A stretch of 64,000 bases of DNA from Candidatus Latescibacterota bacterium (GTDB lineage Bacteria > Latescibacterota > CBDEFO01). Below the pieces are notes generated by a model. It was not told where the DNA came from. It saw nothing but the letters and a program-made list of their open reading frames with translations, and ran no database searches. Location: assembly GCA_965237525.1 (NCBI GenBank), contig CBDEFO010000008.1:143607-207606 (forward strand), in the 5' to 3' direction. Positions 26,672 through 46,514 of this stretch are shown piece by piece. The translations under genes were made by a program, and so were the position numbers. The number at the start of each line of letters is the position of its first letter. Position 1 is the stretch's first letter.

Positions 26672-27868
26672 TTAACCTTCAGGAAATTTGGTATATTCAG
26701 CATCTGAAGGAGCAACCGGGGACAGTGCGAGGGCATCCTTGGGCTTGATCTTCTGAGAGGCTATAAAGGACATAACTGCGACGCCTGCTCCAAGGAAGAA
26801 CACAACTTCATAGCCCAGGGAAATCCAGATGAATCCTCCCACAAGTGGCATTATGACCGCTGCTATGTGGTTCATAGTGACGCCCATAGCCAAAGTCGGC
26901 TTTATATCTTCTGATGACGCCGTTCTGCCTATGTATGTGGTAATAGCCATGCTCAAAAGGAAAAGGAGATTGTCAGTGATGTATAGTAAGAAGAGCAAGT
27001 ATACGTTGTGAATAAGCGCATAGCCCGAAAAGACGATTATAAGACCTCCGTAGCTGATGCTCAAAGCGACCCTTTCGCCCATCTTATCCACAAGCTTTCC
27101 TGCTTGCGGTGCGAGCAGAACGTTCAGGCCGCTGTTTATAAGAGACAGGATCAATATATTGCACAGCTGGACGTTGTAGATCTTAACCAAAGCGAATAAC
27201 GCAAATGTCATAAATATCTGTCTGCGATATCCTGAAAGGAACGTCAAGAAATAGAATAGACTGTATTTTCTTCTGAAGACAAGGTGGACCGTTGTCGGAT
27301 TGCCCGTGTCTTTGGACATAGCAAAGAGGGCAAATGCCCCCGCCACTCCCACGATTCCCGCAGTCCAGTACATCTCTGTGTAGCCGTATCCAAATAGCTT
27401 GATTATATATGTCAGCACAATCCCTGCAAGCGTAGCCAGGCCCGCCACACTCCTTAGCTGTCCTAACCTCTTTCCACGTTCCCTCTCCTCCGTCAGGCTC
27501 AACGCCATGCTGTCGCTGAGAGGCATCCACAGATGGAAGCCTATGCTCCAGATGAAGGAAAAGATGACAAGTGACTCTACGGTATATACGTGGGCATACG
27601 AAAAGAGACCGAATCCGTAGATCATAAGGAATATACCGGCTATCAGGGGTTCTGCAAAGCTGATTATCAGACCGGCTAAAAAGGCGGCAAGCAGGCCCGG
27701 AACCTCTCTTATCGCTTCGACTATACCCAGTTGATGCGCCTCGATCCCCATCCGTTCTACGGCGTAGTTGTTGAATATAGGGACGTGTATCCCGGTTAAC
27801 GTAAACGAGAGCGCAAATACCGAAATAGCAAGCAAGATAAAGTTTCGTCTGATCTGGTCTGAATTCAA
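26672..27868 (-). CDS. MFS-type transporter (12 predicted TM segments), intact; TTG start
   Basis: 398 aa hydrophobic protein; four truncated 5' copies lie downstream in the cassette array. Confidence 0.7.
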   Translation of the reverse strand: MNSDQIRRNFILLAISVFALSFTLTGIHVPIFNNYAVERMGIEAHQLGIVEAIREVPGLLAAFLAGLIISFAEPLIAGIFLMIYGFGLFSYAHVYTVESLVIFSFIWSIGFHLWMPLSDSMALSLTEERERGKRLGQLRSVAGLATLAGIVLTYIIKLFGYGYTEMYWTAGIVGVAGAFALFAMSKDTGNPTTVHLVFRRKYSLFYFLTFLSGYRRQIFMTFALFALVKIYNVQLCNILILSLINSGLNVLLAPQAGKLVDKMGERVALSISYGGLIIVFSGYALIHNVYLLFLLYITDNLLFLLSMAITTYIGRTASSEDIKPTLAMGVTMNHIAAVIMPLVGGFIWISLGYEVVFFLGAGVAVMSFIASQKIKPKDALALSPVAPSDAEYTKFPEG

Positions 27869-28257
27869 GGCTACCTATTCTTCGAATAGACAAAAAATGT
27901 TGATGTTGAGAATATAATTGGTTATACTAAAAGGCGACATTAAACTTAGCAATATAGAAGAGTAATGTCAAGCTTAAACACCTTTTGTCCTTAAAATTGC
28001 CGTTTGGGGAATACGAGACTGCTTCCCCGCGTTCAGCAACGACTAATGGTGTCATTGCGAGGAGGCCTGCCCCCGAATGATTCTGTCGGGGGTTCAATTG
28101 GGACTCAAGAGAAGCGCGGAGGTGACCCTCTATACTTGGTGAACACGAGGGTTCGCCCCGACATTCATGTGTGTAGGTGCAGACTCGTGCGTCTGCCCTG
28201 AAATAAGGTTGCAGTTGTGGGCTCAGTATATCAACTGAGCCGAAAGGAGCACCAGAT
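27869..28257. promoter_or_regulatory. conserved divergent promoter/leader module, copy 1: 6-3-6 palindrome CTATTC-ttc-GAATAG at the MFS RBS, promoter-like TTGATG-17-TATACT (27900-27928), REP-like GATTC..GGGG element, and two 8-6-8 palindromes, followed by RBS AAGGAG
   Basis: Near-identical copies at 32074-32489, 34071-34404, 36764-37154 and (partial) 38215-38500. Confidence 0.55.
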
Positions 28258-29523
28258 ATGAAACTATTTTCAAAGATTGCATGGGAAAGATTACACGAAA
28301 AGGCAACAAGCCTCCACGAACAAGGTCGGTATGAGGAAGCAGTTAAGTTTGCCAAAGATGCTTTGAAAATAGCTGAGGAAACTTTCGGTCCAGAACACCC
28401 CAATATGGCGATCTCCCTGATCAGTCTGGCGAGACTTTACGAAGATCAGGCCAAGTATGCCGAGGCTGAGCCCCTTTGCTGGCGGTCACTGGCAATAAGG
28501 GAAAAAGCCCTTGGAGAAGACCATCCTGCTGTGGCGCAATCCCTGAACAATCTGGCAAGCCTTTATCATTCCCAGGCCAAGTATGTCGAGGCTGAGCCCC
28601 TTTACAAACGGTCACTGGGAATATGGGAAAAAGCCCTTGGGCCAGATCACCCCGATGTGGCTCCTGTGTGGGAGAATATGGCGGGACTTTACAGAGATCA
28701 GGGCAAGTATGCTGAAGCTGAGCCACTTTACACGCGGTCACTGGCAATAAGGGAAAAAGCCCTTGGAGAAGACCATCCTGCTGTGGCGAGATCCCTGGAC
28801 AATCTGGCAAGCCTTTATCATTCCCAGGCCAAGTATGTCGAGGCTGAGCCCCTTTTCAAGAGAGCACTGGAAATAAGGGAAAAAGCTCTTGGCAAAGACC
28901 ATCCTGATGTGGCAACTTCACTGAACAATCTGGGGGAACTTTACAGAGCTCAGGGCAAATATGTCGAGGCTGAGCTCCTTTACTGGCGTTCACTGGCAAT
29001 AACGGCGAAAGTCCTTGGGTCAGACCATCCTAATGTGGCAACTTCACTAAACAATCTGGCGTTACTTTATTATTCCCAGGGCAAGTATGTCGAAGCTGAG
29101 CCCCTTTACAGGCAGGCACTGGCAATAAGGGAGAAAGTCCTTGGGTCAGACCATCCTGATGTGGCAACTTCACTGAACAATCTGGCGTTACTTTATTATT
29201 CCCAGGGCAAGTATGTCGAAGCTGAGCCCCTTTACAAGCAGGCACTGGCAATAAGGGAAAGAGTCCTTGGGCCAGATCACCCCGATGTAGAGTACTCTCT
29301 GAGCGGTCTGGCGTTACTTTATGATTCCCAGGGCAAGTATGCCGAGGCTGAGCCCCTATACAAGAGGTCACTGGCAATAAGGGAGAAAGCTCCTGGGAAA
29401 GACCATCCAACCACGGCGACTTTGTTGGAGAATATGGCAAAGCTTTACAGGAAGATTGGAAAGGAAGATGAAGCGAAAAGGTTGGACGAGCGTGCAGAAG
29501 GAATTCGTTCAAGAAACCAGTGA
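28258..29523 (+). CDS. tetratricopeptide-repeat protein (kinesin-light-chain-type TPR_10/TPR_12 repeats), no signal peptide
   Basis: About 9 units of [36 protein letters not shown] (42 aa). Confidence 0.8.
   Translation: MKLFSKIAWERLHEKATSLHEQGRYEEAVKFAKDALKIAEETFGPEHPNMAISLISLARLYEDQAKYAEAEPLCWRSLAIREKALGEDHPAVAQSLNNLASLYHSQAKYVEAEPLYKRSLGIWEKALGPDHPDVAPVWENMAGLYRDQGKYAEAEPLYTRSLAIREKALGEDHPAVARSLDNLASLYHSQAKYVEAEPLFKRALEIREKALGKDHPDVATSLNNLGELYRAQGKYVEAELLYWRSLAITAKVLGSDHPNVATSLNNLALLYYSQGKYVEAEPLYRQALAIREKVLGSDHPDVATSLNNLALLYYSQGKYVEAEPLYKQALAIRERVLGPDHPDVEYSLSGLALLYDSQGKYAEAEPLYKRSLAIREKAPGKDHPTTATLLENMAKLYRKIGKEDEAKRLDERAEGIRSRNQ
28380..29460. repeat. 126-bp tandem coding repeats (TPR units); also 29614-30650, 32600-32900, 34590-35900, 37230-39800
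   Basis: DNA-level near-identity of successive 126-bp units; long antisense ORFs are artefacts of this periodicity. Confidence 0.8.
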
Positions 29524-29571
29524 TGGCAATATCACACAAATTAGCCTTCGGAGAATTTCCATTCTACGGAT

Positions 29572-30727
29572 GACGCGATGGCAAGGATAAGGGACATCGG
29601 TATAAAAATAGGCGACCTCCCTGAACAATCTGGCGGAACTTTATTATTCCCAGGGCAAGTATGTCGAAGCCGAGCCTCTTTATAAGCGGGCACTGGCAAT
29701 AAGGGAAGAAGTCCTTGGCAAAGACCATCCCGATGTGGCGACCTCACTGGACAGGCTGGCGGGACTTTATTATTTCCAGGGCAAGTATGTCGAAGCCGAG
29801 CCTCTTTATAAGCAGGCACTGGCAATAAAGGAAGAAGTCCTTGGCAAAGACCATCCCGATGTGGCGACCTCACTGAATTGTCTGGGGTTACTTTATCATT
29901 CCCAGGGCAAGTATGTCGAAGCCGAGCCTCTTTATAAGCAGGCACTGGCAATAAAGGAAGAAGTCCTTGGCAAAGACCATCCCGATGTGGCGACCTCACT
30001 GAACAATCTGGCGGAACTTTATTATTCCCAGGGCAAGTATGTCGAAGCCGAGCCTCTTTATAAGCGGTCACTGGCAATATACGAGAAAGCCCTTGGCAAA
30101 GACCATCCCAATGTGGCGAACTCCCTGAACAATCTGGCGGAACTTTACAGAGCTCAGGGCAAGTATGCCGAGGCTGAGCCACTTTATGAGCGGTCACTGG
30201 CAATATACGAGAAAGCCCTTGGCAAAGACCATCCCGATGTAACTTACCCCCTGAACAATCTGGCGTTGCTTTATAAGACTCAGGGCAAGTATGCCGAGGC
30301 TGAGCCTCTTTATAAGCGGGCACTGGCAATAGGGGAAAAAGCCCTTGGCAAAGACCATCCCAATGTGGCGACTTCCCTGAACAATCTGGCGGGACTTTAT
30401 AAGACTCAGGGCAAGTATGCCGAGGCTGAGCCACTTTATGAGCGGTCACTGGCAATAAAGGAAAAAGCCCTTGGCAAAGACCATCCCAACCTGGCGACCT
30501 CCCTGAACAATCTGGCGGGACTTTATAAGACTCAGGGCAAGTATGCCGAGGCTGAGCCTCTTTATAAGCGGGCACTGGCAATAAAGGAGAAAGCCCTTGG
30601 CAAAGACCATCCCAGTGTGGCGACTGTGTTGGAGGATATGTCGGAGTTTTACGAGAAGATTGGTAAAGAAGATGAAGCTAAGAGGTTGGCCGAACGTGCG
30701 AGAGGAATTCGTTCAAGAAGCCAGTAA
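29572..30727 (+). pseudogene. chimera: first 42 nt of the DmpA gene fused out of frame to a TPR repeat array (TPR copy 2), lacking a proper start
   Basis: ATGGCAAGGATAAGGGACATCGGTATAAAAATAGGCGACCT is then joined mid-repeat to ...CCCTGAACAATCTGGCGGAACTTTAT; the TPR frame is closed by a TAG immediately upstream. Confidence 0.6.
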
Positions 30728-30781
30728 TAGAGGTAACGCACGAATAAGACTTCGGAGAAGTTCCATTTTACGGATGACGCG

Positions 30782-31773
30782 ATGACAAGGATAAGGGACA
30801 TCGGCATAAAAATAGGCGACCTTGAAACGGGAGAACTCAACTCCATCTCTGACGTTGAGGGCACGAAAGTAGGGCACGTTGACATGGGTCATGACGGAAC
30901 GCCCTTAAGGACCGGAATAACTGCCGTAGTGCCCCCTCGACAGGAGAAGAGAAGAAAACTCTTCATCGGTAGATACGGCGTCAAAGACTGGGACGGAATG
31001 ACAGGCTTGAGGCAGCTGAGGACTTTGGGACGTTCTCGTCCCCCATAGTATTAACGAGTGCTGCAAGCGTGGGCGTCGTCTACAACGCCTGCATAACCTA
31101 CGGACACAAAAGAGACCGTGGGCTGCCCATAGACGCCGGATGGCCACCCGTCGTGATAGGCCTGGACGACTCCTATCTGAATGACCCTGAAAAGGAAAGA
31201 GAGATAAAGGAGGACATCCTCTTTGAATGCTTCCAGAAAGCGCAAGGAGAAAAAGTGGAGGAGGGAAACGTGGGAATCGGAAGAGGACTGTGCGCCTTCG
31301 GACTAAAAGTCGGAATCGGGCAATCGTCCAGAAAAGTCCAGGGCTACACCGTAGGCATCCTTGTAGCGTCCAACGGAGGAATCAGGAGGAGCCTGACTGT
31401 GGATGGAGTTCCGGTCGGAAGACATCTCTCTGCGCCCCAACCACAGGGCATACTCACAAGGTCAATCGTGGCAGTAACCGCCACAGACGCCCCTTTGACC
31501 CCAAAGCAGTTCGACCACCTTTCGGAGATGACCGGAGCAGGTTTGATCAAAGGGGGATTCATAGACGCTCATATAGACCAAGGATTGATAGTTTCTTTTT
31601 CCACTTCAAATTCCATAGACGCTCCCTTCGAGAACCAAAAGACCTACAGAATCAGATCTGTTCCCCAAGGGGAGCTCTATCCTCTCTTCGACGCTGCCAT
31701 AGAAGCTGCTCAAGAGGCCGGACTGAACTCACTTACCACATCGAAAAGTGCAGAAGGCAAGGACGGACGATAA
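30782..31773 (+). pseudogene. DmpA/BapA-like S58 peptidase, copy with 1-bp deletion (frameshift near 31005)
   Basis: ORFs 30782-31048 and 31069-31773 together match the intact 349-aa copy at 39910-40959; CTTGAGGCAGCTGAG versus CTTGAGCGTAGCTGAG. Confidence 0.7.
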
Positions 31774-31857
31774 AGGCGATACCCCAAGATCAGCTTACCG
31801 AAATAATGGGAAGATACAGGGGGACCGACTGATCATGCCCGAACCATTTCTTTCAAC

Positions 31858-32073
31858 TTATCTATCTGCTCTTGCCTTCCCAGAACGATGAGCATATCTC
31901 CTTCCTTCAACTCTTATCGATTCGACTATACCCAGTTGATGCGCCTCGATCCCCATCCGTTCTACGGCGTAGTTGTTGAATATAGGGACGTGTATCCCGG
32001 TTAACGTAAACGAGAGCGCAAATACCGAAATAGCAAGCAAGATAAAGTTTCGTCTGATCTGGTCCGAATTCAA
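31858..32073 (-). pseudogene. 5' fragment (about 180 bp) of the MFS transporter gene
   Basis: First 60 aa identical to the intact MFS N-terminus, then divergence. Confidence 0.7.
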
Positions 32074-32489
32074 GGCTACCTATTCTTCGAATAGACAAAA
32101 AATGTTGATGTTGAGAATATAATTGGTTATACTAAAAGGCGACATAGAGTTTAGCAAAACAGGAGTGTAATGTCAAGCTCAAGCTCCTTTTGTCCTTAAA
32201 ATTTCAGTTTGGGGAATATGAGATTTCTTCCTCCCGATAGGTTCAATCGGGGGTGCTGGCAATGACTAAGGGAGAGGTCATTGTGAGGAGGTCTGCCGCT
32301 GAATGATTCTATCGGGGGTTCAATCGGGGACTCAAGAGAAGGGAGAAGGTGCTCCTGTATACTGGGCGAACACGTGGAAAAAGCATTCATCTGTTGTAGG
32401 GGCAGACCCGTGTGTCTGCCCTGGAATGATGACTACTAATGTGAGGAGGAACCCTTCCTTGATTCCTTGAACCGAAAGGAGCACCAGAT

Positions 32490-32993
32490 ATGGGGGCATT
32501 TTCAAAGTGGGAAATACTAATGGAAAAGGCAGAAACGTTCCGCGAACAAGGTCAGTATGAGAAAGCAGTTAAGGTTGCTAAAAAGGCTTTGAAAGTAGCT
32601 GAGAAAACTTTCGGTCCAGACCATCCCGATGTGCTGATCTCACTGGACAGTCTGGCGGTACCTTATGCTTATCAGGGCAAGTATGCCGAGGCTGAACCCC
32701 TTTTCAAGCGGGCACTGGCAATGAGGGAAGAAGCCCTTGGAAAAGATCATCCCGCTGTGGCGGGCTCACTGAACAATCTGGTGGTACTTTACAGAGATCA
32801 GGGCAAGTATGCCGAGGCTGAGCCCCTTTACAAGCGGGCACTGGCAATAGTCGAAAAAGCTCTTGGCAAAGACCATCCTGATATGGCGACTGTGTTGGAG
32901 AATATGTCGGAGTTTTACGAGGAGATTGGTAAAGAAGATGAAGCTAAGAGGTTGGCCGAACGTGCGAGAGGAATTCGTTCAAGAAGCCAGTGA
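32490..32993 (+). CDS. short TPR protein (167 aa, about 3 repeats), cassette 2
   Basis: Same N-terminus type as 28258 (MGAFSKWEILMEKAETF...), and same C-terminal tail ...EEIGKEDEAKRLAERARGIRSRSQ. Confidence 0.65.
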   Translation: MGAFSKWEILMEKAETFREQGQYEKAVKVAKKALKVAEKTFGPDHPDVLISLDSLAVPYAYQGKYAEAEPLFKRALAMREEALGKDHPAVAGSLNNLVVLYRDQGKYAEAEPLYKRALAIVEKALGKDHPDMATVLENMSEFYEEIGKEDEAKRLAERARGIRSRSQ

Positions 32994-33047
32994 TGGCAAT
33001 ACGGCACAAATTCACCTTCGGAGAATTTCTATTTTACGGATAGCGCA

Positions 33048-33657
33048 ATGGCAAGGATAAGGGACATCGGCATAAAGATAGGCGACCTTGAAACGGGAGA
33101 ACTCAACTCCATCTCTGACGTCGAGGGCACGAAAGCAGGGCACGTTGACATAGATCATGACGGAACTCCCTTAAGGACCGGAATAACTGCCGTAGTGCCC
33201 GGAGAAGAGAAGAAAACTCTTCATCGGAAGATACGGCGTCAAAGACCGGGACGGAATGACAGGCTTGAGCGTAGCTGAGGACTTCGGGACGTTCTCATCT
33301 CCCGTAGTTTTGACGAGTGCTGCAAGCGTGGGCGTCGTCTATAACGCCTGCATAACCTACGGACACAAAAGAGACCGTGGACTCCCCATAGACGCCGGAT
33401 GGCCACCCGTCGTGATAGGCCTGGACGACTCCTATCTGAACGACCCTGAAAAGGAAAGAGAGATAAAGGAGGACATCCTCTTTGAATGCTTCCAGAAAGC
33501 GCAAGGAGAAAAAGTGGAAGAGGGAAACGTGGGAATCGGAAGAGGACTGTGCGCCTTCGGACTAAAAGTCGGAATCGGGCAATCGTCCAGAAAAGTCCAG
33601 GGCTACACCGTAGGCATCCTTGTAGCGTCCAACGGAGGAATCAGGAGGAGCCTCACT
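33048..33657 (+). pseudogene. DmpA-like peptidase copy with an 8-nt deletion (frameshift at about 33200), truncated at about 33657 where it joins antisense MFS sequence
   Basis: ORFs 33048-33278 and 33256-33822; the latter reads into the reverse strand of the MFS fragment. Confidence 0.65.
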
Positions 33658-33659
33658 AG

Positions 33660-34070
33660 CTGTCCTAACCTCTTTCCACGTTCCCTCTCCTCCGTCAGGC
33701 TCAGCGCCATACTGTCGGTGAGAGGCATCCACAGATGGAAACCTATGCTCCAGATGAAGGAAAAGATGACAAGTGACTCTACGGTATATACGTGGGCATA
33801 CGAAAAGAGACCGAATCCGTAGATCATAAGGAATATACCGGCTATCAGGGGTTCTGCAAAGCTGATTATCAGACCGGCTAAGAAGGCGGCAAGCAGGCCC
33901 GGAACCTCTCTTATCGCTTCGACTATACCCAGTTGATGCGCCTCGATCCCCATCCGTTCTACGGCGTAGTTGTTGAATATAGGGACGTGTATCCCGGTTA
34001 ACGTAAACGAGAGCGCAAATACCGAAATAGCAAGCAAGATAAAGTTTCGTCTGATCTGGTCTGAATTCAA
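33660..34070 (-). pseudogene. 5' fragment (about 410 bp) of the MFS transporter gene
   Basis: ORF 33603-34070 matches the MFS N-terminal 120 aa. Confidence 0.7.
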
Positions 34071-34404
34071 GGCTACCTATTCTTCGAATAGACAAAAAAT
34101 GTTGATGTTGAGAATATAATTGGTTATACTAAGAGGCGACATTAAACTTAGCAATACAGAAGAGTAATGTCAAGCTTAAACACCTTTTGTCCCTAAAATT
34201 GCCGTTTGGGGAATACGAGATTGCTTCCCCCCGATTGAATCTATGGGGGACTCAAGGGAAGGGAAGAGGTGGGCCTGTATACTGGGCGAATACGCGAGTT
34301 GCCCCTTACATTCATCAGTTGTAGGGGCAGACCCGTGTGTCTGCCCTGAAATAAGGTTACAGTTGTGAGCTCATTATATCAGTGAGCCGAAAGGAGCACC
34401 AGAA

Positions 34405-35979
34405 ATGAGAGTATTTTCAAAAGTTTTCGTGATTGCATCCCTATGCTTATCGTTTGCCGCAACTGCTTTTTCCCAGGAAACGTTATGGGAAATACTAAAC
34501 GAAAAGGCAACAAAACTCTACCAACAAGGTCAGTATGAGGAAGCAGTTAAGTTTGCCAAAGAGGCTTTGAAAGTAGCTGAGGAAACTTTCGGTTCAGAAC
34601 ACCTCAATATGGCGATCTCACTGAACATTCTGGCGTTACTTTACAGCGATCAGGGCAAGTATGTGGTGGCTGAGCCACTTTACAAGCGGGCACTGGTAAT
34701 AACGGAAAAAGTCCTTGGCAAAGACCATCCCAGTGTGGCGACCACCCTGAACAATCTGGCGTTACTTTACAGCGATCAGGGCAAGTATGTGGTGGCTGAG
34801 CCACTTTCTAAGCGGGCACTGGTAATAACGGAAAAAGTCCTTGGCAAAGACCATCCCAGTGTGGCGCAATCCCTGAATAATCTGGCGGTACTTTATCATT
34901 ATCAGGGCAAGTATGTCGAGGCTGAGCCCCTTTACAAGCGGTCACTGGCAATAGCAGAAAAAGCCCTTGGAAAAGACCATCCTGATGTGGCGCAATCCCT
35001 GAATAATCTGGCGGTACTTTATCATTATCAGGGCAAGTATGTCGAGGCTGAGCCCCTTTACAAGCGGTCACTGGCAATAGCAGAAAAAGCCCTTGGAAAA
35101 GACCATCCCAGTGTGGCGGGCTCACTGGGCGGTCTGGCGGTACTTTACAGAGATCAGGGCAAGTATGACGAGGCTGAGCCCCTTTATGAGCGGTCACTGG
35201 CAATAAGGGAAAAAGCCCTCGGAAAAGACCATCCCGATGTGGCGACCTCATTGAACGGTCTGGCGTTACTTTACAGCGATCAGGGCAAGTATGTCGAGGC
35301 TGAGCCCCTTCACAAGCGGGCACTGGCAATATACGAGAAAGCCCTTGGAAAAGACCATCCCAGTGTGGCGACTTCCCTGAATAATCTGGCGGTACTTTAT
35401 GATAGTCAGGGCAAGTATGTCGAGGTTGAGCCCCTTTACAAGCGGGCACTGGCAATATACGAGAAAGCCCTTGGAAAAGACCATCCTGATGTGGCGCAAT
35501 CCCTGAACAATCTGGCGGTACTTTATGATAGTCAGGGCAAGTATGTCGAGGCTGAGCCCCTTCACAAGCGGGCACTGGCAATATACGAGAAAGCCCTTGG
35601 AAAAGACCATCCCAGTGTGGCGACTTCCCTGAATAATCTGGCGGTACTTTATGATAGTCAGGGCAAGTATGTCGAGGTTGAGCCCCTTTTCAAGCGGGCA
35701 CTGGCAATATACGAGAAAGCCCTTGGAAAAGACCATCCTGATGTGGCGCAATCCCTGAACAATCTGGCGGTACTTTATGATAGTCAGGGCAAGTATGTCG
35801 AGGCTGAGCCCCTTTTCAAGCGGTCACTGGCAATAAGAGAAAAAGCCCTTGGCCAAGACCATCCCGATGTGGCGACTGTGTTGGAGAATATGGCGGAGCT
35901 TTACGAAGAGGTTGGAAAGGAAGATGAAGCTAAGAGGTTGGCCGAACGTGCGAGAGGAATTCGTTTAAGAAACCAGTAA
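34405..35979 (+). CDS. TPR protein (524 aa, about 11 repeats) with an N-terminal signal peptide, cassette 3
   Basis: MRVFSKVFVIASLCLSFAATAFSQ precedes the conserved ETLWEILNEKATKL... start region. Confidence 0.75.
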   Translation: MRVFSKVFVIASLCLSFAATAFSQETLWEILNEKATKLYQQGQYEEAVKFAKEALKVAEETFGSEHLNMAISLNILALLYSDQGKYVVAEPLYKRALVITEKVLGKDHPSVATTLNNLALLYSDQGKYVVAEPLSKRALVITEKVLGKDHPSVAQSLNNLAVLYHYQGKYVEAEPLYKRSLAIAEKALGKDHPDVAQSLNNLAVLYHYQGKYVEAEPLYKRSLAIAEKALGKDHPSVAGSLGGLAVLYRDQGKYDEAEPLYERSLAIREKALGKDHPDVATSLNGLALLYSDQGKYVEAEPLHKRALAIYEKALGKDHPSVATSLNNLAVLYDSQGKYVEVEPLYKRALAIYEKALGKDHPDVAQSLNNLAVLYDSQGKYVEAEPLHKRALAIYEKALGKDHPSVATSLNNLAVLYDSQGKYVEVEPLFKRALAIYEKALGKDHPDVAQSLNNLAVLYDSQGKYVEAEPLFKRSLAIREKALGQDHPDVATVLENMAELYEEVGKEDEAKRLAERARGIRLRNQ

Positions 35980-36035
35980 TAGAGGTAACGCACGAATAAG
36001 ACTTCGGAGAATTTCCATTTTACGGATGACGCGAT

Positions 36036-36625
36036 GACAAGGATAAGGGACATCGGCATAAAGATAGGCGACCTTGAAACGGGCAAACTCAACTCCATCT
36101 CTGACGTCGAGGGCACGAAAGTAGGGCACGTTGACATAGGTCATGACGGGTTAAGGACTGGAATAACAGCCGTGGTGCCTCCCGGAGCAAGATAAGAGGA
36201 GAAAACTCTTCATCGGAAGATACAGCGTCAAAGACTGGGACGGAATGACAGGCTTGAGCGTAGCTGAGGACTTCGGGACGTTCTCGTCCCCCATAGTATT
36301 AACGAGTTCTGCAAGCATTGGGATCGTCTACAACGCCTGCATAACCTACGGACACAAAAGAGAGCATGGGCTGCCCATAGACGCCGGATGGCCCCCCGTC
36401 GTGATAGGCCTGGACGACTCCTATCTGAATGACCCTGAAAAGGAAAGAGAGATAAAGGAGGACATCCTCTTTGAATGCTTCCAGAAAGCGCAAGGAGAAA
36501 AAGTGAAAGAGGGAAACGTGGGAATCGGAAGAGGACTGTGCGCCTTCGGACTAAAAGTCGGAATCGGGCAATCGTCCAGGAAAGTCCAGGGCTACACCGT
36601 AGGCATCCTTGTAGCGTCCAAGCGT
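36036..36625 (+). pseudogene. DmpA-like peptidase copy with a 1-bp insertion (frameshift at about 36195) and 3' truncation at about 36625
   Basis: CCTCCCGGAGCAAGATAAGAGGAG versus the intact CCTCCCGGACAAGATAAGAGGAG; ORF 36245-36637 covers residues about 80-200 only. Confidence 0.65.
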
Positions 36626-36639
36626 TCTACGGCGTAGTT

Positions 36640-36763
36640 GTTGAATATAGGGACGTGTATCCCGGTTAACGTAAACGAGAGCGCAAATACCGAAATAGCA
36701 AGCAAGATAAAGTTTCGTCTGATCTGGTCCGAATTCAAGGCTACCTATTCTTCGAATAGACAA
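36640..36763 (-). pseudogene. short 5' fragment of the MFS transporter gene
   Basis: ORF 36551-36763 N-terminal residues match the MFS protein. Confidence 0.55.
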
Positions 36764-37154
36764 AAAATGTTGATGTTGAGAATATAATTGGTTATACTAA
36801 AAGGCGACATAGAGTTTAGCAAAACAGGAGTGTAATGTCAAGCTCAAGCTCCTTTTGTCCTTAAAATTTCAGTTTGGGGAATATGAGATTTCTTCCTCCC
36901 GATAGATTCAATCGGGGGCGCTGGCAATGACTAAGGGAGAGGTCATTGTGAGGAGGTCTGCCGCCGAATGATTCTATCGGGGGTTCAATCGTGGACTCAA
37001 GAGAAGGGAGAAGGTGCTCCTGTATACTGGGCGAACACGTGGGGAAAGCATTCATCTGTTGTAGGGGCAGACCCGTGTGTTTGCCCTGAAATGATGACTA
37101 CAATGTGAGGAGGAACCCTTCCTTGATTCCTTGAACCGAAAGGAGCACCAGATA

Positions 37155-38200
37155 TGAGGGCACTTTCAAAGTGGGAAAGACTATCGAAAAGGCAGTAACG
37201 TTCCGCGAACAAGGTCAGTATGAGAAAGGAGTTAAGGTTGCTAAAAAGGCTTTGAAAGTAGCTGAGAAAACTTTCGGTCCAGACCATCCCTATGTGGCGA
37301 CCTCCCTGAACGGTCTGGGGTTACTTTATTATTCCCAAGGCAAGTAGGACGAGGCTGAACCCCTTTTCAAGCGGGCACTGGCAATGAGGGAAGAAGCCCT
37401 TGGAAAAGATCATCCCGATGTGGCGGGCTCACTGGGCGGTCTGGGGTTACTTTATTATTCCCAGGGCAAGTATGACGAGGCTGAGCCCCTTTATGAGCCA
37501 ATATGGGAAAAAGCGCTTGGGACCACCCCAATGTGGCGGCTGGACAGTCTGGCGGATCTTTACAGGCTCAAGGCGAGTATGAAGGCTGAGCCCCTTTATA
37601 GTCCCTGAGAAAGCGCTCGGAAAAAATTCCCGATGGATGACCCAGACAATCTGGCGGAACTTTATTATCCCCGATGTCGAAGCCGAGCCTCTTTACAAGC
37701 GGGCACTGAAGAACATTTGGTTCTGGCGGAATCTACTTTTTATTCCCAGGGCAAGTATGTCAGGAGCAACTGGCAATATGACCTTGGAAAAGATTCTAGG
37801 CTGAGAGATCAGGGCTTTAGCCTCTTTATAAGCGGTCACTGGCAATATGCGAAAAAGGGAATCCCTATGTGGCGAAGTTACTTTATTATTCCCCAAGTAT
37901 GTCGAAGTCGGCCTCTTTATAAAGACTGACATCCTTGGCAAAGACCATCCCGCTGTGGCGGTCTCCCTGACCGGTCTGGGGTTACTTTATTATTCCCAGG
38001 GCAAGTATGTCGAGGCTGAACCCCTTTTCAAGCGGTCACTGGCAATAAGGGAAGAAGTCCTTGGCAAAGACCATCCCGATGTGGCGACCTCACTGAACAA
38101 TCTGGCGGAACTTTATTATTCCCAGGGCAAGTATGTCGAAGCCGAGCCTCTTTATGAGCGGTCACTGGCAATATAGACGAAAAAGCCCTTGGAAAAGACC
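37155..38200 (+). pseudogene. heavily degraded TPR gene (cassette 4): premature TAA/TAG codons and many small deletions within repeats
   Basis: MRALSKWERLSKRQ* right after the start; broken repeat units such as ...EPLYEPIWEKALGTTPMWRLDSLADLY. Confidence 0.7.
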
Positions 38201-38499
38201 ACATAGAGTTTAGCCAGGATGTGGCGCTCCTCACTAAAACAGTCTGGGGAATATACTTTATAGATTCAATCGGGGGCAGGGCAATGTATGACGAGGCTGA
38301 GGAGGTCTGCCCCGAATAATTCTATCGGCGGGTTCAATCGGGGACTCAAGAGAAGGGAGAAGCTCCTGTATACTGGGCGAACACCTGGGGAAAGCATTCA
38401 TCTGTTGTAGGGGCAGACCCGTGTGTCTGCCCTGAAATGATGACTACAATGTGAGGAGGAACCCTTCCTTGATTCCTTGAACCGAAAGGAGCACCAGAT

Positions 38500-39855
<1,356 letters not shown>

Positions 39856-39909
39856 TGGCAATATGGCACAAATTCACCTTCGGAGAATTTCCATTTTACG
39901 GATAGCGCA

Positions 39910-40959
39910 ATGGCAAGGATAAGGGACATCGGCATAAAAATAGGCGACCTTGAAACGGGCAAACTCAACTCCATCTCTGACGTCGAGGGCACGAAAGTAG
40001 GGCACGTTGACATAGGTGATGACGGGTTAAGGACTGGAATAACAGCCGTGGTGCCTCCCGGACAAGATAAGAGGAGAAAACTCTTCATCGGAAGATACGG
40101 CGTCAAAGACTGGGACGGAATGACAGGCTTGAGCGTAGCTGAGGACTTCGGGACGTTCTCATCTCCCGTAGTTTTGACGAGTGCTGCAAGCGTGGGCGTC
40201 GTCTATAACGCCTGCATAACCTACGGACACAAAAGAGACCGTGGGCTGCCCATAGACGCCGGATGGCCACCCGTCGTGATAGGCCTGGACGACTCCTATC
40301 TGAATGACCCTGAAAAGGAAAGAGAGATAAAGGAGGACATCCTCTTTGAATGCTTCCAGAAAGCGCAAGGAGAAAAAGTGGAAGAGGGAAACGTGGGAAT
40401 CGGAAGAGGACTGTGCGCCTTCGGACTAAAAGTCGGAATCGGGCAATCGTCCAGAAAAGTCCAGGGCTACACCGTAGGCATCCTTGTAGCGTCCAACGGA
40501 GGAATCAGGAGGAGCCTCACTGTGGATGGAGTTCCGGTCGGAAGACATCTGTCTGTACCCCAGCCAGAAGGCATAGTCACAAGGTCAATCGTGGCAGTAA
40601 CCGCCACAGACGCGCCATTGACCCCCAAGCAGTTGGACCACCTTTCGGAGATGACCGGAGCAGGTTTGATCAAAGGGGGATTCATAGACGCGTATATTGA
40701 CCAGGGATTGATAGTTTCTTTTTCCACTTCAAATTCCATAGACGCTCCCTTCGAGAATCAAAAGACCTACAGAATCAGATCTGTTCCCCAAGGGGAGCTC
40801 TATCCTCTCTTCGACGCTGCCATAGAAGCTGCTCAAGAGGCCGGATTGAACTCACTTACCACATCGAAAAGTGCAGAAGGCAAGGACGGACGGACGATAA
40901 AGGCGATACCCCAAGATCAGCTCGTCGCAATAATGGGAAGATACAGGGGGACCGACTGA
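39910..40959 (+). CDS. DmpA/BapA-like S58 family peptidase (L-aminopeptidase D-Ala-esterase/amidase, beta-aminopeptidase type), the only intact copy
   Basis: 349 aa. N-terminal MARIRDIGIKIGDLETGKLNSISDVEGTKVGHVDIGDDGLRTGITAVVPP matches the DmpA-family start. Confidence 0.75.
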   Translation: MARIRDIGIKIGDLETGKLNSISDVEGTKVGHVDIGDDGLRTGITAVVPPGQDKRRKLFIGRYGVKDWDGMTGLSVAEDFGTFSSPVVLTSAASVGVVYNACITYGHKRDRGLPIDAGWPPVVIGLDDSYLNDPEKEREIKEDILFECFQKAQGEKVEEGNVGIGRGLCAFGLKVGIGQSSRKVQGYTVGILVASNGGIRRSLTVDGVPVGRHLSVPQPEGIVTRSIVAVTATDAPLTPKQLDHLSEMTGAGLIKGGFIDAYIDQGLIVSFSTSNSIDAPFENQKTYRIRSVPQGELYPLFDAAIEAAQEAGLNSLTTSKSAEGKDGRTIKAIPQDQLVAIMGRYRGTD

Positions 40960-41964
40960 TCATGCTCGAACCATTTCTTTCAACTTATCTATCTGCTCTT
41001 GCCTTCCCAGAACGATGAGCATATCTCCTTCCTTCAACGTGGTATGCCCCGGCGGCCTTATGGAGACCTTTCCATCTCTGTCCTTAAGTCCGACAACGAT
41101 GCACCCCGTCAGTTCCGGCTTTACAAAGATCTCGTCCAGCAGGGATTTGTCTGCCAGACTCGAGCCCGGCCTTACAAAGACCTCCTCAAGTCCTAAAGAA
41201 ACGTCGTCACCGTGGACCATGACATCCAAAAAATTCACTAACGCTGGATGCAGGATTACAGAGGCCATCCTCAGTCCCCCTATTCTCGGCGGACTTATCA
41301 CTCTGTCCGCCCCCGCCCTGATCAGCTTCTCCTCCACTGTGTCGTCAGATGCCCTTGCCACTATTGCAAGGTCCGGATTCATCCCCCTTGCCGACAGGGT
41401 CACAAAGACATTATCCGAATCTGTATCCAGAGCGGTCACCAGTCCCTTAGCCGTTTCGATTCCCGCCCTTCTCAATACCTCGTCGTTTGTAGCATCACCC
41501 TCTACCATCAGTATGCTGCGACCATCTATCGTGAGATCCTCAGACGGTTTTCGGTCTATCACTACAAAATCTACGCCTGTCCTTACAAACTCGGATACCA
41601 CGTGTCTTCCGACCCTTCCACACCCGCAAAGTATGTAGTGCCCCTCCAGTTTCTCGATTTCCTTCTGCATCTTTCTCCCCTTCATTATGTCTGTTATCTG
41701 ACCTTCCACCACAAAGGCTGTAAGATTCCCAAGAGAATAGGCAACCCATCCGACTCCCAGTACTATAAGCACCATAGTAAATGACTGCCCTAACGTGGAA
41801 AGTCCTTTCACCTCCCTAAAGCCCACAGTAGCCATTGTTATGACCGTCATATAGAGCGAGTCGTGAAGACTCCAGTCCTCTATTAACATATATCCCAAGC
41901 TCCCGCCCACCAAAAGGAAGATCAAAATTCCCATAGAGATAAAGAGCTTGTTCAAAGGTGACAT
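40960..41964 (-). CDS. two-TM pore channel with RCK (TrkA-N/TrkA-C) gating domains; non-canonical filter TVGFRE
   Basis: Pore-helix/filter TMATVGFREV; Rossmann motif ILCGCGRVGRHV. Confidence 0.65.
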   Translation of the reverse strand: MSPLNKLFISMGILIFLLVGGSLGYMLIEDWSLHDSLYMTVITMATVGFREVKGLSTLGQSFTMVLIVLGVGWVAYSLGNLTAFVVEGQITDIMKGRKMQKEIEKLEGHYILCGCGRVGRHVVSEFVRTGVDFVVIDRKPSEDLTIDGRSILMVEGDATNDEVLRRAGIETAKGLVTALDTDSDNVFVTLSARGMNPDLAIVARASDDTVEEKLIRAGADRVISPPRIGGLRMASVILHPALVNFLDVMVHGDDVSLGLEEVFVRPGSSLADKSLLDEIFVKPELTGCIVVGLKDRDGKVSIRPPGHTTLKEGDMLIVLGRQEQIDKLKEMVRA

Positions 41965-42091
41965 AGATCTTCACTTTCGACTGAGTCATGTTACGATTAG
42001 GGCTTTTTTCAAGCTACAATCTAAAATCTTACATCAATAATGTCAACTGAATTCGATAAACCTACCCAAATGTTGGAAGAGGCAAAAGTAC

Positions 42092-42119: not shown

Positions 42120-42184
42120 TAGCGTCGGAACCGAACATTCTACTAATGCGAACTATTTTTTGGAAGGTGAAACGGAACGTTACG

Positions 42185-43153
42185 ATGAATCCTTCGCACC
42201 GGCTAAAGATCGTCGTTCCAGCCGACGACCCGCCGCAGATCCAAGGTTCGTCCCATCTGGAGCGGCTCAAACCCTACGGTGATGTCACGCTCTACACTGA
42301 CCGACCCTTGGCGCTATCCGAAAAGATGTCCCGCGCAAGAGACGCCGACATTATGATAAACAGTCGAGGTGCTGTCAACTGGCCCGCTGATGCCCTTTTC
42401 AAGTTGCCCAAGCTCCGTATGATCGCGACCTGTTCCATCGGCACCGACATGATAGACCTCAATGCCGCAAAGGAGCTGGGGATCGTTGTGAGCAACCTCC
42501 CCGGTGCCACCTCTTATATTGTCGCCGAGCACGCAATAGGTCTTATGTTTGCTGCGGCAAAGCGCACAGCGTTCCAGACCTCCGAGCTGAAGGCCGGAAG
42601 CTGGACTCGGATGGACAATATACTGCTTAGAGGCAAGACGCTCGGCGTCATCGGGACAGGAAACATCGGGAAAGAGGTAGTGAGGCTCGGCCGCGCCCTC
42701 GGTATGAAAGTCATCGCCTGGACATTTCATCCCTCCTATGAAAGGCAAAAAGAGTTGGGAGTCCGGTTCGTGGAGTTGGACCAGCTGTTGAAGTCATCGG
42801 ACGTGATCAGCCTCCACATCAAGCTGACCGAAGAGAGCCGTGGGATAATAGGGAAGCTCCAGATCCAATTGATGAAGCCGGGGGCGCTCTTGGTCAACTG
42901 CTCGCGCGCAGGCCTGGTGGACTCTCAGGCCCTGATAGAGGCTCTGAACTCAGGTCATCTTGGCGGCGCGGCGATAGACGCTTACGACGAGGAACCGCTT
43001 CCGCCTGACCATCCGATTCTATCGTGCCAGCAGGTGGTGCTCACCCCCCACAATGCCGATCAGACCCCGGAGGGAGTAGACCTTTTGAACGCTGGAGCGG
43101 TGGACAACGTCATCGCCTTTTTGGAGGGACAACCGCAGAACGTAGTGACTTAA
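42185..43153 (+). CDS. D-isomer-specific 2-hydroxyacid dehydrogenase family (phosphoglycerate dehydrogenase-like) NAD-binding oxidoreductase
   Basis: GKTLGVIGTGNIGKEV NAD motif; C-terminal ...LTPHNAD. ORF listed from 42092; ATG (MNPSHRLKIVV) at 42185. Confidence 0.8.
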   Translation: MNPSHRLKIVVPADDPPQIQGSSHLERLKPYGDVTLYTDRPLALSEKMSRARDADIMINSRGAVNWPADALFKLPKLRMIATCSIGTDMIDLNAAKELGIVVSNLPGATSYIVAEHAIGLMFAAAKRTAFQTSELKAGSWTRMDNILLRGKTLGVIGTGNIGKEVVRLGRALGMKVIAWTFHPSYERQKELGVRFVELDQLLKSSDVISLHIKLTEESRGIIGKLQIQLMKPGALLVNCSRAGLVDSQALIEALNSGHLGGAAIDAYDEEPLPPDHPILSCQQVVLTPHNADQTPEGVDLLNAGAVDNVIAFLEGQPQNVVT

Positions 43154-43160
43154 ACAAATA

Positions 43161-43205
43161 GGCAGTAGCCTCCGATCCCCGAAGGACTCAATCTGGGATT
43201 CAATC
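43161..43205. repeat. REP-like element (CCGATCCCCGAAGGACTCAATCTGGGATTCAATCGGAGGG) downstream of the dehydrogenase gene
   Basis: Member of the GATTCAATCGGGG family. Confidence 0.5.
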
Positions 43206-43312
43206 GGAGGGTAGACGCGAGACCGCTTCCTCCCTAAACCGTTACTGCGATCCGAAGCCCAGAGCGAAGCGAAGAGACTGCCAAGCAGTCTCATTTTAGG
43301 ACAGATGCAACT

Positions 43313-43981
43313 ATGAAATTCACTGACCACCTCAGAGAAAAAGCTGCACCTATATGGGAAAGAGAAATGGAGCATCCGTTCGTATCTGGCATAGGTGACG
43401 GATCGCTCCCGCTCGATAAATTCAAATACTATATGTGTCAGGACTACCTCTTTTTGATCGAATACAGTAGGCTCTTTGGGCTGGCTGTCGCAAGGTCCGA
43501 TGACCTTGAAACGATGGGCAGATTTGCCGAACTCCTTTCCGCCACGCTCAACGTTGAAATGGATCTGCACAGGAGCTACGCTCGAAAGTTCGGCATAGAA
43601 GAGGGGGAATTAGAAGATACAGTGATGTCCCCTACGACGCATGCCTACACCCGACATCTTCTGCATGTAGCCGAAACGGGGACCACTGCGGAACTCGTGG
43701 CAGCCGTGCTCCCATGCGCCTGGGGCTACTGGGAGATCGGAACAAGACTTGCAAAGAAGGGAGAACCGAAAGCCCAACTGCTCTACGGAGAGTGGGTCAA
43801 AACTTACTCCTCACAGGAGTTCGGGGAGTTTGCCGACTGGTTGAAGGACCTGCTGGACTCGCTGTCCCACGGCCTTAACGAGCACGAACTCAGAAAACTT
43901 GAAGGGCACTTCATCACCAGTAGTAGATACGAATACATGTTCTGGGAGATGTCCTACAACGAGGAGGAATGGCCGGTCTAA
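43313..43981 (+). CDS. tenA: TenA-family thiaminase II / aminopyrimidine aminohydrolase
   Basis: FKYYMCQDYLFLIEYSRLFG and a TenA/PqqC-like fold signature. Confidence 0.8.
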   Translation: MKFTDHLREKAAPIWEREMEHPFVSGIGDGSLPLDKFKYYMCQDYLFLIEYSRLFGLAVARSDDLETMGRFAELLSATLNVEMDLHRSYARKFGIEEGELEDTVMSPTTHAYTRHLLHVAETGTTAELVAAVLPCAWGYWEIGTRLAKKGEPKAQLLYGEWVKTYSSQEFGEFADWLKDLLDSLSHGLNEHELRKLEGHFITSSRYEYMFWEMSYNEEEWPV

Positions 43982-44053
43982 TTGAGGCGAGGCATCTGTA
44001 AGTGTAGTGGCAACAATTCCCTGCATTGAGACTGAGACAAGCGGAGAGAGTTG

Positions 44054-44689
44054 CTATTCGCCGCCTCCGGGGTTTATGGGAGCCCCCTCCCAGAGTTGGA
44101 GGAATTCCTGAGCTTGTTGCGATGTGTGCAGATAAGAAAAGCGAGCCACCTGGCGTCCGATGTCCATGACCCTTTCCTGCAGTCGGTCGTCTTTCAAATT
44201 TCCCTCCTCATCGAACGCATTCCATGCCTCGGGGATAGATGCCTGTTCCGGGATGACCCACGCATGGAGCGCACGTCCGACAGTCCGCAGACTGTTCAAG
44301 GCATTCAGACCACCCATCTGTCCCCCCGATACGCCCACAAGCCCGATCATCTTGGCTTCAAACTCGTCGAACCCCATAAGGTCTAATGCGTTCTTCAACA
44401 CGCCGCTGAAGCTTCCATGATATTCAGGTGTCCCCAGAATAATCCCTTGTGCCCGACTTACGTCTTCCCGCAGCTTAAAGGTGTCCTTGGGATAGGCGCT
44501 TTCGTCTTCCTTCCCATCGCACAAAATGAGGTCGTATTCTTTCAAGTCGATCAATTGGGTCCGGACACCCACCTCCTGAGCACCTTGTAATGCCACGTTT
44601 ACTGCCATGCGGGTATAGCTGCCATCTCTAAGACTCCCACAGATGCCGACGATCAGGATGTTGTTTTCCGTATGATCTATTTGATTCAC
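44054..44689 (-). CDS. NAD(P)H-dependent FMN reductase (flavodoxin-like fold)
   Basis: ILIVGICGSLRDGSYTR N-terminus typical of the FMN_red family. Confidence 0.75.
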   Translation of the reverse strand: MNQIDHTENNILIVGICGSLRDGSYTRMAVNVALQGAQEVGVRTQLIDLKEYDLILCDGKEDESAYPKDTFKLREDVSRAQGIILGTPEYHGSFSGVLKNALDLMGFDEFEAKMIGLVGVSGGQMGGLNALNSLRTVGRALHAWVIPEQASIPEAWNAFDEEGNLKDDRLQERVMDIGRQVARFSYLHTSQQAQEFLQLWEGAPINPGGGE

Positions 44690-44775
44690 GGTGATTATCC
44701 TTCTAAAATTAACATGAAGTAAACGTCCCTCAAATACGCTAAGAACGAACCGACTATTTTACCGGATAATCACGG

Positions 44776-45417
44776 CTACAATTGTATCCCCTCATAAAGC
44801 CCCGCTTCATAGAGGTGAGCCGTATCGTTTAGTCTTTCTATCGTACGCTCGTTCCATTGATTCGTTCTGAGCACGGTGATACTCGTCGGTGAAGCATCAA
44901 AGGATACCTCAGACAGCATATCTACCTCTAATTTCAGCCACCAGGCGAGGATGTTTATTATGGTCCCTCCATGTGTGACCAGAAGGATAAGACTCTCCTG
45001 GCTCTCGGTGAGATGTTCCACATAGTTTGACACTCTCAAATAAAATTGACGCCACGTCTCTGCCTGGGGATACGTCTGCCAATCAATGTATGGCTCTGTC
45101 CGTTCCAGAGTGTACTGCTTCGCCTCTCCTACTGTCTTACCCGCTGCGATGCCGTTGTTGAGTTCTCTCAACCGGGGAGCGAGATTTGGGGTCATCCCCA
45201 TCTCTTTGCCGAGTATCTGTGCCGTCTGAAACGCTCGCTTAAGATCGCTGCAATACAGCTTTAAGGGAGTACCCCGGATCTCACGCTTTAGTCTAGATGC
45301 AAGATGAGCGGCCTGACGACGCCCCAACTCCGTCAAACCGGTGTCTGTCCATCCTCCGGTTAAATCCTTCAAATGATGTTCCGACTGTCCATGTCGAATC
45401 AGGACAATTGATTTCAC
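44776..45417 (-). CDS. histidine phosphatase (phosphoglycerate mutase) family protein
   Basis: LIRHGQSEHH catalytic RHG motif. Confidence 0.8.
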   Translation of the reverse strand: MKSIVLIRHGQSEHHLKDLTGGWTDTGLTELGRRQAAHLASRLKREIRGTPLKLYCSDLKRAFQTAQILGKEMGMTPNLAPRLRELNNGIAAGKTVGEAKQYTLERTEPYIDWQTYPQAETWRQFYLRVSNYVEHLTESQESLILLVTHGGTIINILAWWLKLEVDMLSEVSFDASPTSITVLRTNQWNERTIERLNDTAHLYEAGLYEGIQL

Positions 45418-45671
45418 CGAATTGCTCCAGTCTTCAGGATTACACTAATCTAATTATCTGGCCTATGTCCGCGCATTTCTGAGCCAAAACAGAGATCTCC
45501 GTAGCATTGTAATCCAATTGTTCAGGGCCTTTTCAGTCCTCTTTGCCCCGAATGTGATCTAAGCAGAGCCTGCAATCCTCAACGAAAGCATATCGTCCTG
45601 AAGACCAAGCAACGTTACTTCGACTGCCTGATTTAATCCGGGGAAGTGAAGCAATCTCCGTTAGCTTTTCT

Positions 45672-46484: not shown

Positions 46485-46514
46485 AGAATCGTCCTTATCT
46501 TGATGAGATTGAGA

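Follow-up and report, generated by a model that had tools for sequence, protein, structure and literature searches.

A probable lineage-specific tandem amplification of an MFS/TPR/S58 peptidase neighbourhood, with pseudogenised passengers, in a Latescibacterota genome

Described relatives of a TPR-rich tandem locus

Tandem duplication and amplification followed by pseudogenisation is a familiar course of bacterial gene evolution, framed by the duplication-divergence and innovation-amplification-divergence models: new copies are created at novel joins of low homology and are then remodelled by unequal crossing-over and deletion. The locus described here has this general appearance. It occupies positions 26672-40959 of a 64-kb stretch of a Candidatus Latescibacterota genome (GenBank assembly GCA_965237525.1, contig CBDEFO010000008.1, positions 143,607-207,606 of the forward strand), which was analysed as a whole and is called the window below, and it combines pieces of a major facilitator superfamily (MFS) transporter gene, genes built of tetratricopeptide repeats (TPR) and S58 peptidase genes. 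Two other kinds of described systems come close to it. Fungal and bacterial NLR/STAND proteins carry TPR_10/12 arrays of 42-residue units with high internal conservation, and silent-cassette loci, such as Neisseria pilE/pilS and Borrelia vlsE, underlie antigenic variation.

With duplication-divergence, the array shares its head-to-tail units, novel joins with little or no homology, signs of later unequal crossing-over and deletion, and a copy number that is polymorphic among close relatives (one versus about six, a third being arranged differently). It departs from that scheme in that its copies are 3-20% apart, most passenger genes are dead and the array occurs in several strains, which does not resemble a transient selected state. 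The likeness to the NLR/STAND arrays resides in the TPR genes, with 42-residue units 80-99% identical to one another, intragenic change in repeat number and few variable positions. However, neither the NB-ARC/NACHT domain nor the effector domain of these proteins or of Avs-type sensors is found: the proteins are TPR-only, with caps and an ancestral signal peptide. Like pilE/pilS and vlsE, the locus gathers intact and truncated paralogues at one place, whereas its copies have their own promoter-like sites and ribosome-binding sites (RBS), and the arrays are identical in two near-identical strains. Cross-array mosaicism among TPR units was not detected by unit-to-unit comparison.

An amplified neighbourhood and its remains

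The array probably arose when a single ancestral neighbourhood, made up of a divergently transcribed MFS gene, an intergenic region (IG), a gene for a secreted TPR_10/12 protein and an S58 aminopeptidase gene, underwent tandem segmental amplification in this lineage, with pseudogenisation of its passenger genes. The window was mapped by self-BLAST, repeat finders (including Tandem Repeats Finder) and Pfam, which confirm the head-to-tail tandem arrangement that an initial annotation, made from the letters of this DNA, had proposed. The duplicated stretch is ~3 kb long and comprises the start of the transporter gene, the secreted TPR-repeat gene and the S58 peptidase gene; it is present in ~6 units, partly dead. 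The sole match in the species-representative genome collection, the complete Latescibacterota metagenome-assembled genome (MAG) chromosome OZ252149.1 (L001), holds a single cassette in the same syntenic place, MFS / TPR (441 amino acids (aa), with signal peptide) / S58 (349 aa) / TrkA, within flanks 91-97% identical to those of the window.

Counted over the whole array, there are six TPR arrays and five starts of S58 genes, along with four MFS starts and five copies of the intergenic region, of which four are complete and one is partial. The TPR-to-S58 order is kept in every unit, and the 54-bp spacers between the two are all present. The initial annotation had described a five-fold unit, one fewer than the TPR arrays counted here, and had given the MFS 5' stubs as 180, 410 and 120 bp; they measure 163, 414 and 116 bp and are 98.8-99.1% identical to the full MFS gene. 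It was right that only the outermost MFS and DmpA-type (S58) genes are intact, the inner S58 copies being frameshifted or truncated, and its family assignments were recovered by Pfam profile search (PF07690 for MFS, TPR_10/TPR_12, and PF03576 for Peptidase_S58). One MFS gene, one S58 gene and three TPR paralogues (of 3, 9 and 11 units) thus appear intact, and only one TPR protein is predicted to be exported in this genome. The features, from left to right, are:

26672-27868, minus strand: intact MFS_1 transporter gene, 398 aa (Pfam PF07690, E=1e-20), with 97% nucleotide identity and synteny to L001 7085-8281; left, orthologous edge of the array
27869-28257, plus strand: intergenic copy IG1, alpha type; match to a sigma70-like promoter at 27900-27928, palindrome at 28177-28198, AAGGAG RBS at ~28245
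28258-29523, plus strand: TPR1, intact open reading frame (ORF), 421 aa, 9 units (Pfam TPR_12, E=8e-151)
29578-29618, plus strand: S58 5' stub, 41 bp, joined to a TPR repeat via the 8-bp microhomology GGCGACCT (junction J0)
29619-30727, plus strand: TPR2, 5'-truncated, 8 units and C-terminal cap, out of frame with the 41-bp S58 stub and devoid of its own RBS or start
30782-31832, plus strand: S58 copy A, full-length pseudogene (+6 insertion, -1 at nucleotide (nt) 225, -4 at nt 975)
31833-31910, minus strand: 78-bp fragment of the 3' end of a TrkA-type channel gene, brought in by duplication; junction J1 at 31910/31911
31911-32073, minus strand: MFS 5' stub, 163 bp, 98.8% identical to the intact gene
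32074-32489, plus strand: intergenic copy IG3, beta type, promoter-like site at 32105-32133
32490-32993, plus strand: TPR3, intact short ORF, 167 aa, 3 units, without signal peptide
33048-33657, plus strand: S58 copy B (+6, -6, frameshift -2), cut at nt 612 (~aa 204), upstream of Ser226; junction J2
33657-34070, minus strand: MFS 5' stub, 414 bp, 98.8% identical to the intact gene
34071-34404, plus strand: intergenic copy IG4, alpha type, promoter-like site at 34102-34130
34405-35979, plus strand: TPR4, intact ORF, 524 aa, signal peptide MRVFSKVFVIASLCLSFAATAFS, 11 units
36034-36621, plus strand: S58 copy C (+1 frameshift), cut at nt 588; junction J3, common to contig ERZ25067264
36623-36738, minus strand: MFS 5' stub, 116 bp, found by self-BLAST
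36739-37153, plus strand: intergenic copy IG5, beta type, promoter-like site at 36770-36798
37154-38185, plus strand: TPR5 pseudogene, in-frame TAG at 37345-37347, ending at junction J4 (TPR repeat to IG nt ~18)
38186-38499, plus strand: intergenic copy IG6, beta type, partial; its 5' half has 17 deletion runs and is complete in the sister strain
38500-39855, plus strand: TPR6 pseudogene, start codon ATC, several small deletions in 38650-39200, 3' 650 bp in frame
39910-40959, plus strand: intact S58 peptidase gene, 349 aa (Pfam PF03576, E=5e-64)
40960-41964, minus strand: TrkA-type K+ channel gene, right flank, whose last 78 bp were copied into the array

TPR6 is the positional orthologue of the single TPR gene of L001. 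TPR2 is probably dead: it lacks an RBS and a start of its own, and its frame does not continue that of the S58 stub.

Related genomes and independent assemblies

A sister strain is represented by an independent ENA assembly (ERZ26167216, contig ctg488510; L003-L005). It matches window positions 28281-36522 (8.2 kb) at 99.87% identity, with 11 mismatches and 0 gaps, and positions 42155-53981 (11.8 kb) at 99.85% with no gaps. It exhibits the same units, junctions and S58 frameshifts, six TPR arrays as well, and a TPR4 protein identical to that of the window. A more distant relative (ERZ25067264, ctg835173; L002) has flanks ~96% identical to the window, and its intact S58 gene adjoins TrkA. Junction J3 (S58 nt 588 to MFS nt 116) is present twice in it, with S58 ORFs truncated to 200 aa. 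An inverted secondary array at 8590-15785 (7.2 kb), which reads TPR 417 / S58 200 / TPR 482 / S58 200 / TPR 529+78 aa, sits between FMN-reductase and histidine-phosphatase genes (window equivalent 44702-44757). TPR repeat numbers differ in this 96%-identical genome. A fourth contig (L009) ends 310 bp upstream of the MFS start, at the array edge. A contig of more than 1 Mb was also indicated to encode HD, TPR4 and TENA proteins identical to those of the window, whereas exact look-ups of the window's S58, TrkA and MFS proteins matched no record. No two of four related genomes share a state: a single cassette in one, six arrays in two different versions, and an inverted second array in the last.

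Because independent contigs reproduce the units, the junctions and the frameshifts, the array is real and polymorphic within the clade, and not an artefact of assembly.

Two further observations concern these relatives. The first gene of the L002 secondary array is a hybrid, in which an N-terminus with a transmembrane segment and a coiled coil, lacking a match in the window, precedes cassette-type TPR units; this suggests ectopic recombination between TPR arrays. Window positions 39354-42064 (TPR6 3' end, intact S58 and TrkA) are only 93.7% identical to the sister strain, both sides being at 99.85-99.87%. This tract looks like an imported allele or a recombination tract, and as such would show that recombinational import occurs at the locus.

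Junctions and history of the array

Five distinct junctions, J0 to J4, are preserved. J1 joins the 78 bp of the TrkA 3' end to MFS nt 163, J2 joins S58 nt 612 to MFS nt 414, and J3 joins S58 nt 588 to MFS nt 116, with 0-1 bp of homology in each case. J0 joins S58 nt 41 to a TPR repeat across the 8-bp microhomology, and J4 joins a TPR repeat to nt ~18 of an intergenic copy. The junction homology of 0-1 bp, or 8 bp at J0, points to illegitimate recombination.

The following course of events would account for these features. Illegitimate joins would have duplicated segments that start inside the MFS gene and end inside or just past the S58 gene. As the end-points lie inside these two genes, each extra unit would have carried a dead MFS stub from the outset, and most of them a truncated peptidase as well. 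The MFS piece at J2 (414 bp) is longer than the 163-bp stub to its left and would therefore derive from the full MFS gene, which implies a block duplication over several units. J3, J0 and J4 may be explained as later deletions, although it is we who infer this order. The deletions at J0 and J4 would then have reshaped the array, together with recombination of one unit with another and unequal crossing-over of the 126-bp TPR repeats. The growth and upkeep of the array might be driven by the recombinogenic TPR repeats, and plausibly by diversification or dosage of the TPR protein, which varies chiefly at six positions per repeat. The S58 and MFS fragments appear to be passenger debris, the MFS pieces being mere duplication end-points.

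Two types of intergenic region can be told apart, alpha (IG1, IG4 and L001) and beta (IG3, IG5 and IG6). The beta copies are 97-100% identical among themselves, and alpha and beta are 75-82% identical, or ~20% apart. The S58 copies are 94-97% identical among themselves versus 91-92% to L001; for the comparison of S58 5' segments, pairwise values were used for the copies other than that of L004. Divergence between the intergenic types, together with the mutual identity of the S58 copies, suggests a history of several steps that is not very recent and includes some homogenisation or allele import. The mismatch between the two measures could reflect either an old first duplication followed by S58 homogenisation or the import of a divergent allele. 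The initial annotation had viewed the locus as recently amplified and recombining rather than as a stable operon. Its recombining nature is borne out by the single cassette of L001, the rearranged L002, the non-homologous junctions and the expansion within arrays; its recency is not, given copies 3-6% (S58) and ~20% (intergenic) apart and an array found in at least three strains.

All four full intergenic copies retain a sigma70-like sequence, TTGATG-17-TATACT, as a putative promoter ~330 nt upstream of a strong AAGGAG RBS. In an Rfam scan of 26-42 kb (E<=0.1), the 330-nt leader matched no RNA family. A perfect palindrome, GGGCAGAC-N6-GTCTGCCC, also recurs in all intergenic copies of the array (28177-28198, 32400-32421, 34325-34346, 37065-37086 and 38411-38432). 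The same palindrome occurs once in an unrelated intergenic spacer of the window, at 5215-5236, with a chance expectation of zero; it is followed there by a second palindrome, GGGCGAAC..GTTCGCCC, which is also found in the array intergenic regions. The first palindrome may be a repetitive extragenic palindromic (REP)-like element or an operator.

The TPR proteins

Only TPR families are identified by Pfam in these proteins (TPR_12 with E=8e-151 to 2e-200, TPR_10 with E up to 7e-171), and no NTPase domain of the NB-ARC/NACHT/STAND kind is recognised by it. In each protein, the 42-aa units stand between an N-terminal cap and a conserved C-terminal cap. The unit starts are spaced exactly 42 aa apart, and Tandem Repeats Finder returns a period of 126 bp. 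Between 3 and 11 repeats are present among the paralogues. Internal units are 80-99% identical to one another and find their best match inside their own array (91-99%), which indicates that the differences in repeat number arose by intragenic expansion. In TPR4, units 6 and 8 are 99.2% identical, the trace of a recent internal duplication of 252 bp.

An alignment of 62 internal units exhibits an invariant framework interrupted by hypervariable positions 7, 10, 17, 20, 21 and 39 (entropy >2 bits). At these positions the proportion of nonsynonymous differences (pN) is 0.36-0.65, versus a mean synonymous value (pS) of 0.39, in a crude calculation made with no phylogeny. A variable binding surface would fit this pattern.

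The signal peptide MRVFSKVFVIASLCLSFAATAFS is found in L001, in the second and third TPR genes of L002 (L002_T2/T3), in TPR1 of the sister strain (L004_T1) and in TPR4 of the window. In the window TPR1 it has been removed by a 57-bp deletion, while the sister strain retains the 440-aa form, and it is absent from the beta-type genes TPR3, TPR5 and TPR6. This distribution suggests that the signal peptide is ancestral and was lost in some copies, the reverse of the earlier proposal that one TPR gene had acquired it.

Three long antisense ORFs run through the TPR arrays, at 29541-30581 (minus strand, 346 aa), 34808-35581 (minus strand, 257 aa) and 29030-29539 (minus strand, 169 aa). They are by-products of the periodic repeats and could be mis-called as genes.

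The S58 peptidase and its neighbourhood

The intact S58 protein matches PF03576 with 217 bits versus a cut-off of 23.9, over profile positions 1-306 of 307. Its structural matches are PDB 2drh (E=2e-56), BapA (3n2w, E=4e-36) and DmpA (1b65, E=4e-34). Ser226, in TR/SIVAVTATDAPL, aligns with GS-IIMIIATDAPL of 2drh (a P. horikoshii homologue) and with NS-LLIVIATDAPL of BapA, and a DmpA-type enzyme is cleaved at Gly/Ser-IIVVIATDA (PMC9570944). The self-cleavage site is hence predicted between Arg225 and Ser226. Like DmpA and BapA (1b65, 3n2w, 2drh), the protein has a full-length PF03576 match and the SIVAVTATDAPL motif, in which Ser226 takes the place of the self-cleavage nucleophile, but an Arg precedes the Ser instead of a Gly or an Asn. 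No signal peptide is present. The gene would thus encode a putative N-terminal nucleophile (Ntn) aminopeptidase of the DmpA/BapA type (P1 family, MEROPS), cytoplasmic in appearance.

Copies B and C end before Ser226, the predicted nucleophile, and the lesions of copies A to C are independent (A: +6, -1, -4; B: +6, -6, -2; C: +1). The same changes recur in the sister-strain contig ERZ26167216 ctg488510. Homopolymer sequencing errors were considered as the origin of the frameshifts in A to C and rejected, as the sites are not homopolymers and the changes recur in an independent assembly.

S58 homologues with 44-52% identity were found in four other lineages. Each lies behind a second S58 paralogue, some with MlrC and an amino-acid ABC transporter, whereas the S58 gene of the window has no such adjacent paralogue. 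No TPR or MFS gene stands beside the homologues in this small sample of four lineages. The tandem S58 pairs (380-432 aa, then 340-363 aa) are located at L006 4747-7023, L008 4656-7092, L010 3862-6023 and L012 3765-6089. Conservation of two paralogues as a pair hints at a hetero-oligomeric enzyme, and in the clade of the window the upstream paralogue seems to be gone, or to have given way to the TPR gene.

PADLOC and NCBIfam recognise no defence system or named family beyond the generic TPR model, and a literature search for DmpA together with tetratricopeptide returned no relevant paper linking DmpA-type enzymes to TPR partners. The TPR-S58 pairing therefore appears confined to this clade as a gene neighbourhood, perhaps an operon, and does not correspond to any system that is described or widespread. 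The TPR/S58/transporter system put forward initially does not fit the S58 orthologues of four other lineages, which have no TPR neighbour, or the MFS pieces, which are end-points.

A deletion block confined to this assembly

The in-frame TAG of TPR5 (37345-37347) and the ATG-to-ATC start loss of TPR6 are lesions common to the window and the sister strain. Other lesions in the same area are not shared. Relative to the sister strain, the window displays 41 deletion runs over 37180-37948, which total 222 bp and are accompanied by 4 mismatches but no insertion, and a further 17 deletion runs over 38185-38376. The blocks between these two stretches are 98-100% identical to the sister strain. About 60 small deletions in 37180-38376 are thus specific to the window, and the ~20 kb around this block (8.2 kb on its left and 11.8 kb on its right) are virtually free of indels relative to the sister strain. 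A burst of deletions only, on a background divergence of 0.13%, is more likely a consensus defect of this assembly than neutral decay. The stops and small deletions with which TPR5 and TPR6 were said to be riddled are indeed present in the letters of the window, but most are absent from the 99.87%-identical sister strain. The caveat that decayed copies might be polishing errors similarly divides: it fails for the S58 frameshifts, which recur independently outside homopolymers, and may hold for 37180-38376.

Alternative explanations

The same features could be those of a functional variable module or contingency locus, in which the TPR, S58 and MFS proteins would form a peptide-sensing or import-and-cleave unit, the TPR gene being varied by unequal crossing-over, or the dead arrays serving as silent donors for gene conversion. 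This is unlikely. The range of 3 to 11 repeats, the variation at six positions per repeat, the differing repeat numbers in L002 and the constancy of the TPR-to-S58 order and 54-bp spacer would suit such a module, as would the differences, between strains otherwise 99.9% identical, in the sequence that precedes TPR1 and in the TPR1 signal peptide. Yet two strains 0.13% apart have the same repeat numbers, with 0 gaps over TPR1-4 (~33 units), so that variation is slow and not of the phase-variation type; the contingency locus of the initial annotation does not survive this comparison. Internal units match best within their own array rather than across arrays, and the units retain their own promoter-like site and RBS and are therefore not promoterless silent cassettes. 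S58 orthologues live without a TPR neighbour in four other lineages, the signal peptide on the ancestral TPR protein and its absence from S58 probably place the two in different compartments, and PADLOC finds nothing specific. A joint version is equally doubtful: a slow diversification locus for a secreted ligand-binding TPR protein, varying in repeat number, six surface positions and compartment, with dead arrays as occasional donors and the S58 enzyme acting on the TPR ligands. Very improbable is an assembly artefact, by which reads of co-existing strains were mis-joined or a repeat was expanded from a genome with one true cassette. In its favour, the window probably stems from a metagenome assembly, assemblies break at TPR repeats (the L009 contig ends at the array edge) and 37180-38376 resembles a consensus defect; against these stand an independent assembly, ERZ26167216, with the same units, junctions and frameshifts over 9.4 kb and 11 scattered base differences, the occurrence of J3 in a third assembly (ERZ25067264), and copies 3-20% apart with every junction unique, unlike an assembler's repeat expansion. 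Still less credence can be given to a dosage amplification that is selected at present for raised peptidase or transporter activity. It has on its side that head-to-tail units with homology-free joins are the signature of selected amplifications, but only one S58 and one MFS gene are intact, the other copies are truncated or frameshifted, with the nucleophile removed in two, and the units are old and diverged.

Amplification of an ancestral cassette followed by decay of its passengers is therefore preferred, and several points weigh against it. A simple single-burst model misfits the ~20% distance between the alpha and beta intergenic types versus 3-6% between S58 copies. L001 may have returned to a single cassette by secondary collapse, in which case its state would not be ancestral. 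Variation within the repeats is focused on six positions, of a kind generic for TPR binding surfaces, and the pN/pS values are crude and take no account of phylogeny. Any view of which TPR copies are used would be a prediction from sequence, and the copy number and deletion cluster of the window are known at the level of the assembled sequence.

Other elements of the window and its relatives

An insertion sequence (IS) of ~1.53 kb is present in four copies, 99.1-99.6% identical, at 1-990, 12193-13718, 49069-50594 and 63550-64000; two of them are cut by the window ends. It encodes a 466-aa transposase with DUF772 and DDE_Tnp_1 domains, which is split into ORFs of 281 and 183 aa in the 49069-50594 copy. 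A further copy lies at L001 18455-19979, and this IS density is unusually high for 64 kb. IS-mediated amplification of the array was considered and rejected, all IS copies of the window being located outside it.

Positions 50647-63060, downstream of the array, hold a cluster of genes for very large proteins of 765, 2315 and 991 aa that are predicted to lie at the surface. Their domains are of the Ig-like, TIG, cohesin or dockerin and Por_Secre_tail types, the last being a sorting domain of type IX secretion. Between TrkA and a 2-hydroxyacid dehydrogenase gene, the sister strain (L004 17318-21575 / L005 4381-8800) has an IS1595-family transposase, an N6/N4 DNA methyltransferase, a CfrBI-type restriction enzyme and a 90.6%-identical copy of window positions 987-2127 (an uncharacterised ORF). 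None of this insert is found at the corresponding site of the window.

Significance of the locus

What is seen here would be an ordinary gene amplification and structural variant, which reveals no new molecular system. It also carries a warning for the scanning of genomes: part of what reads as progressive decay is a deletion-only block absent from the sister strain, which may be consensus error. The locus nevertheless provides a cross-validated example of how repeat-containing genes may destabilise a bacterial chromosome, and because its non-homologous join points are preserved, the history of the array can be reconstructed.

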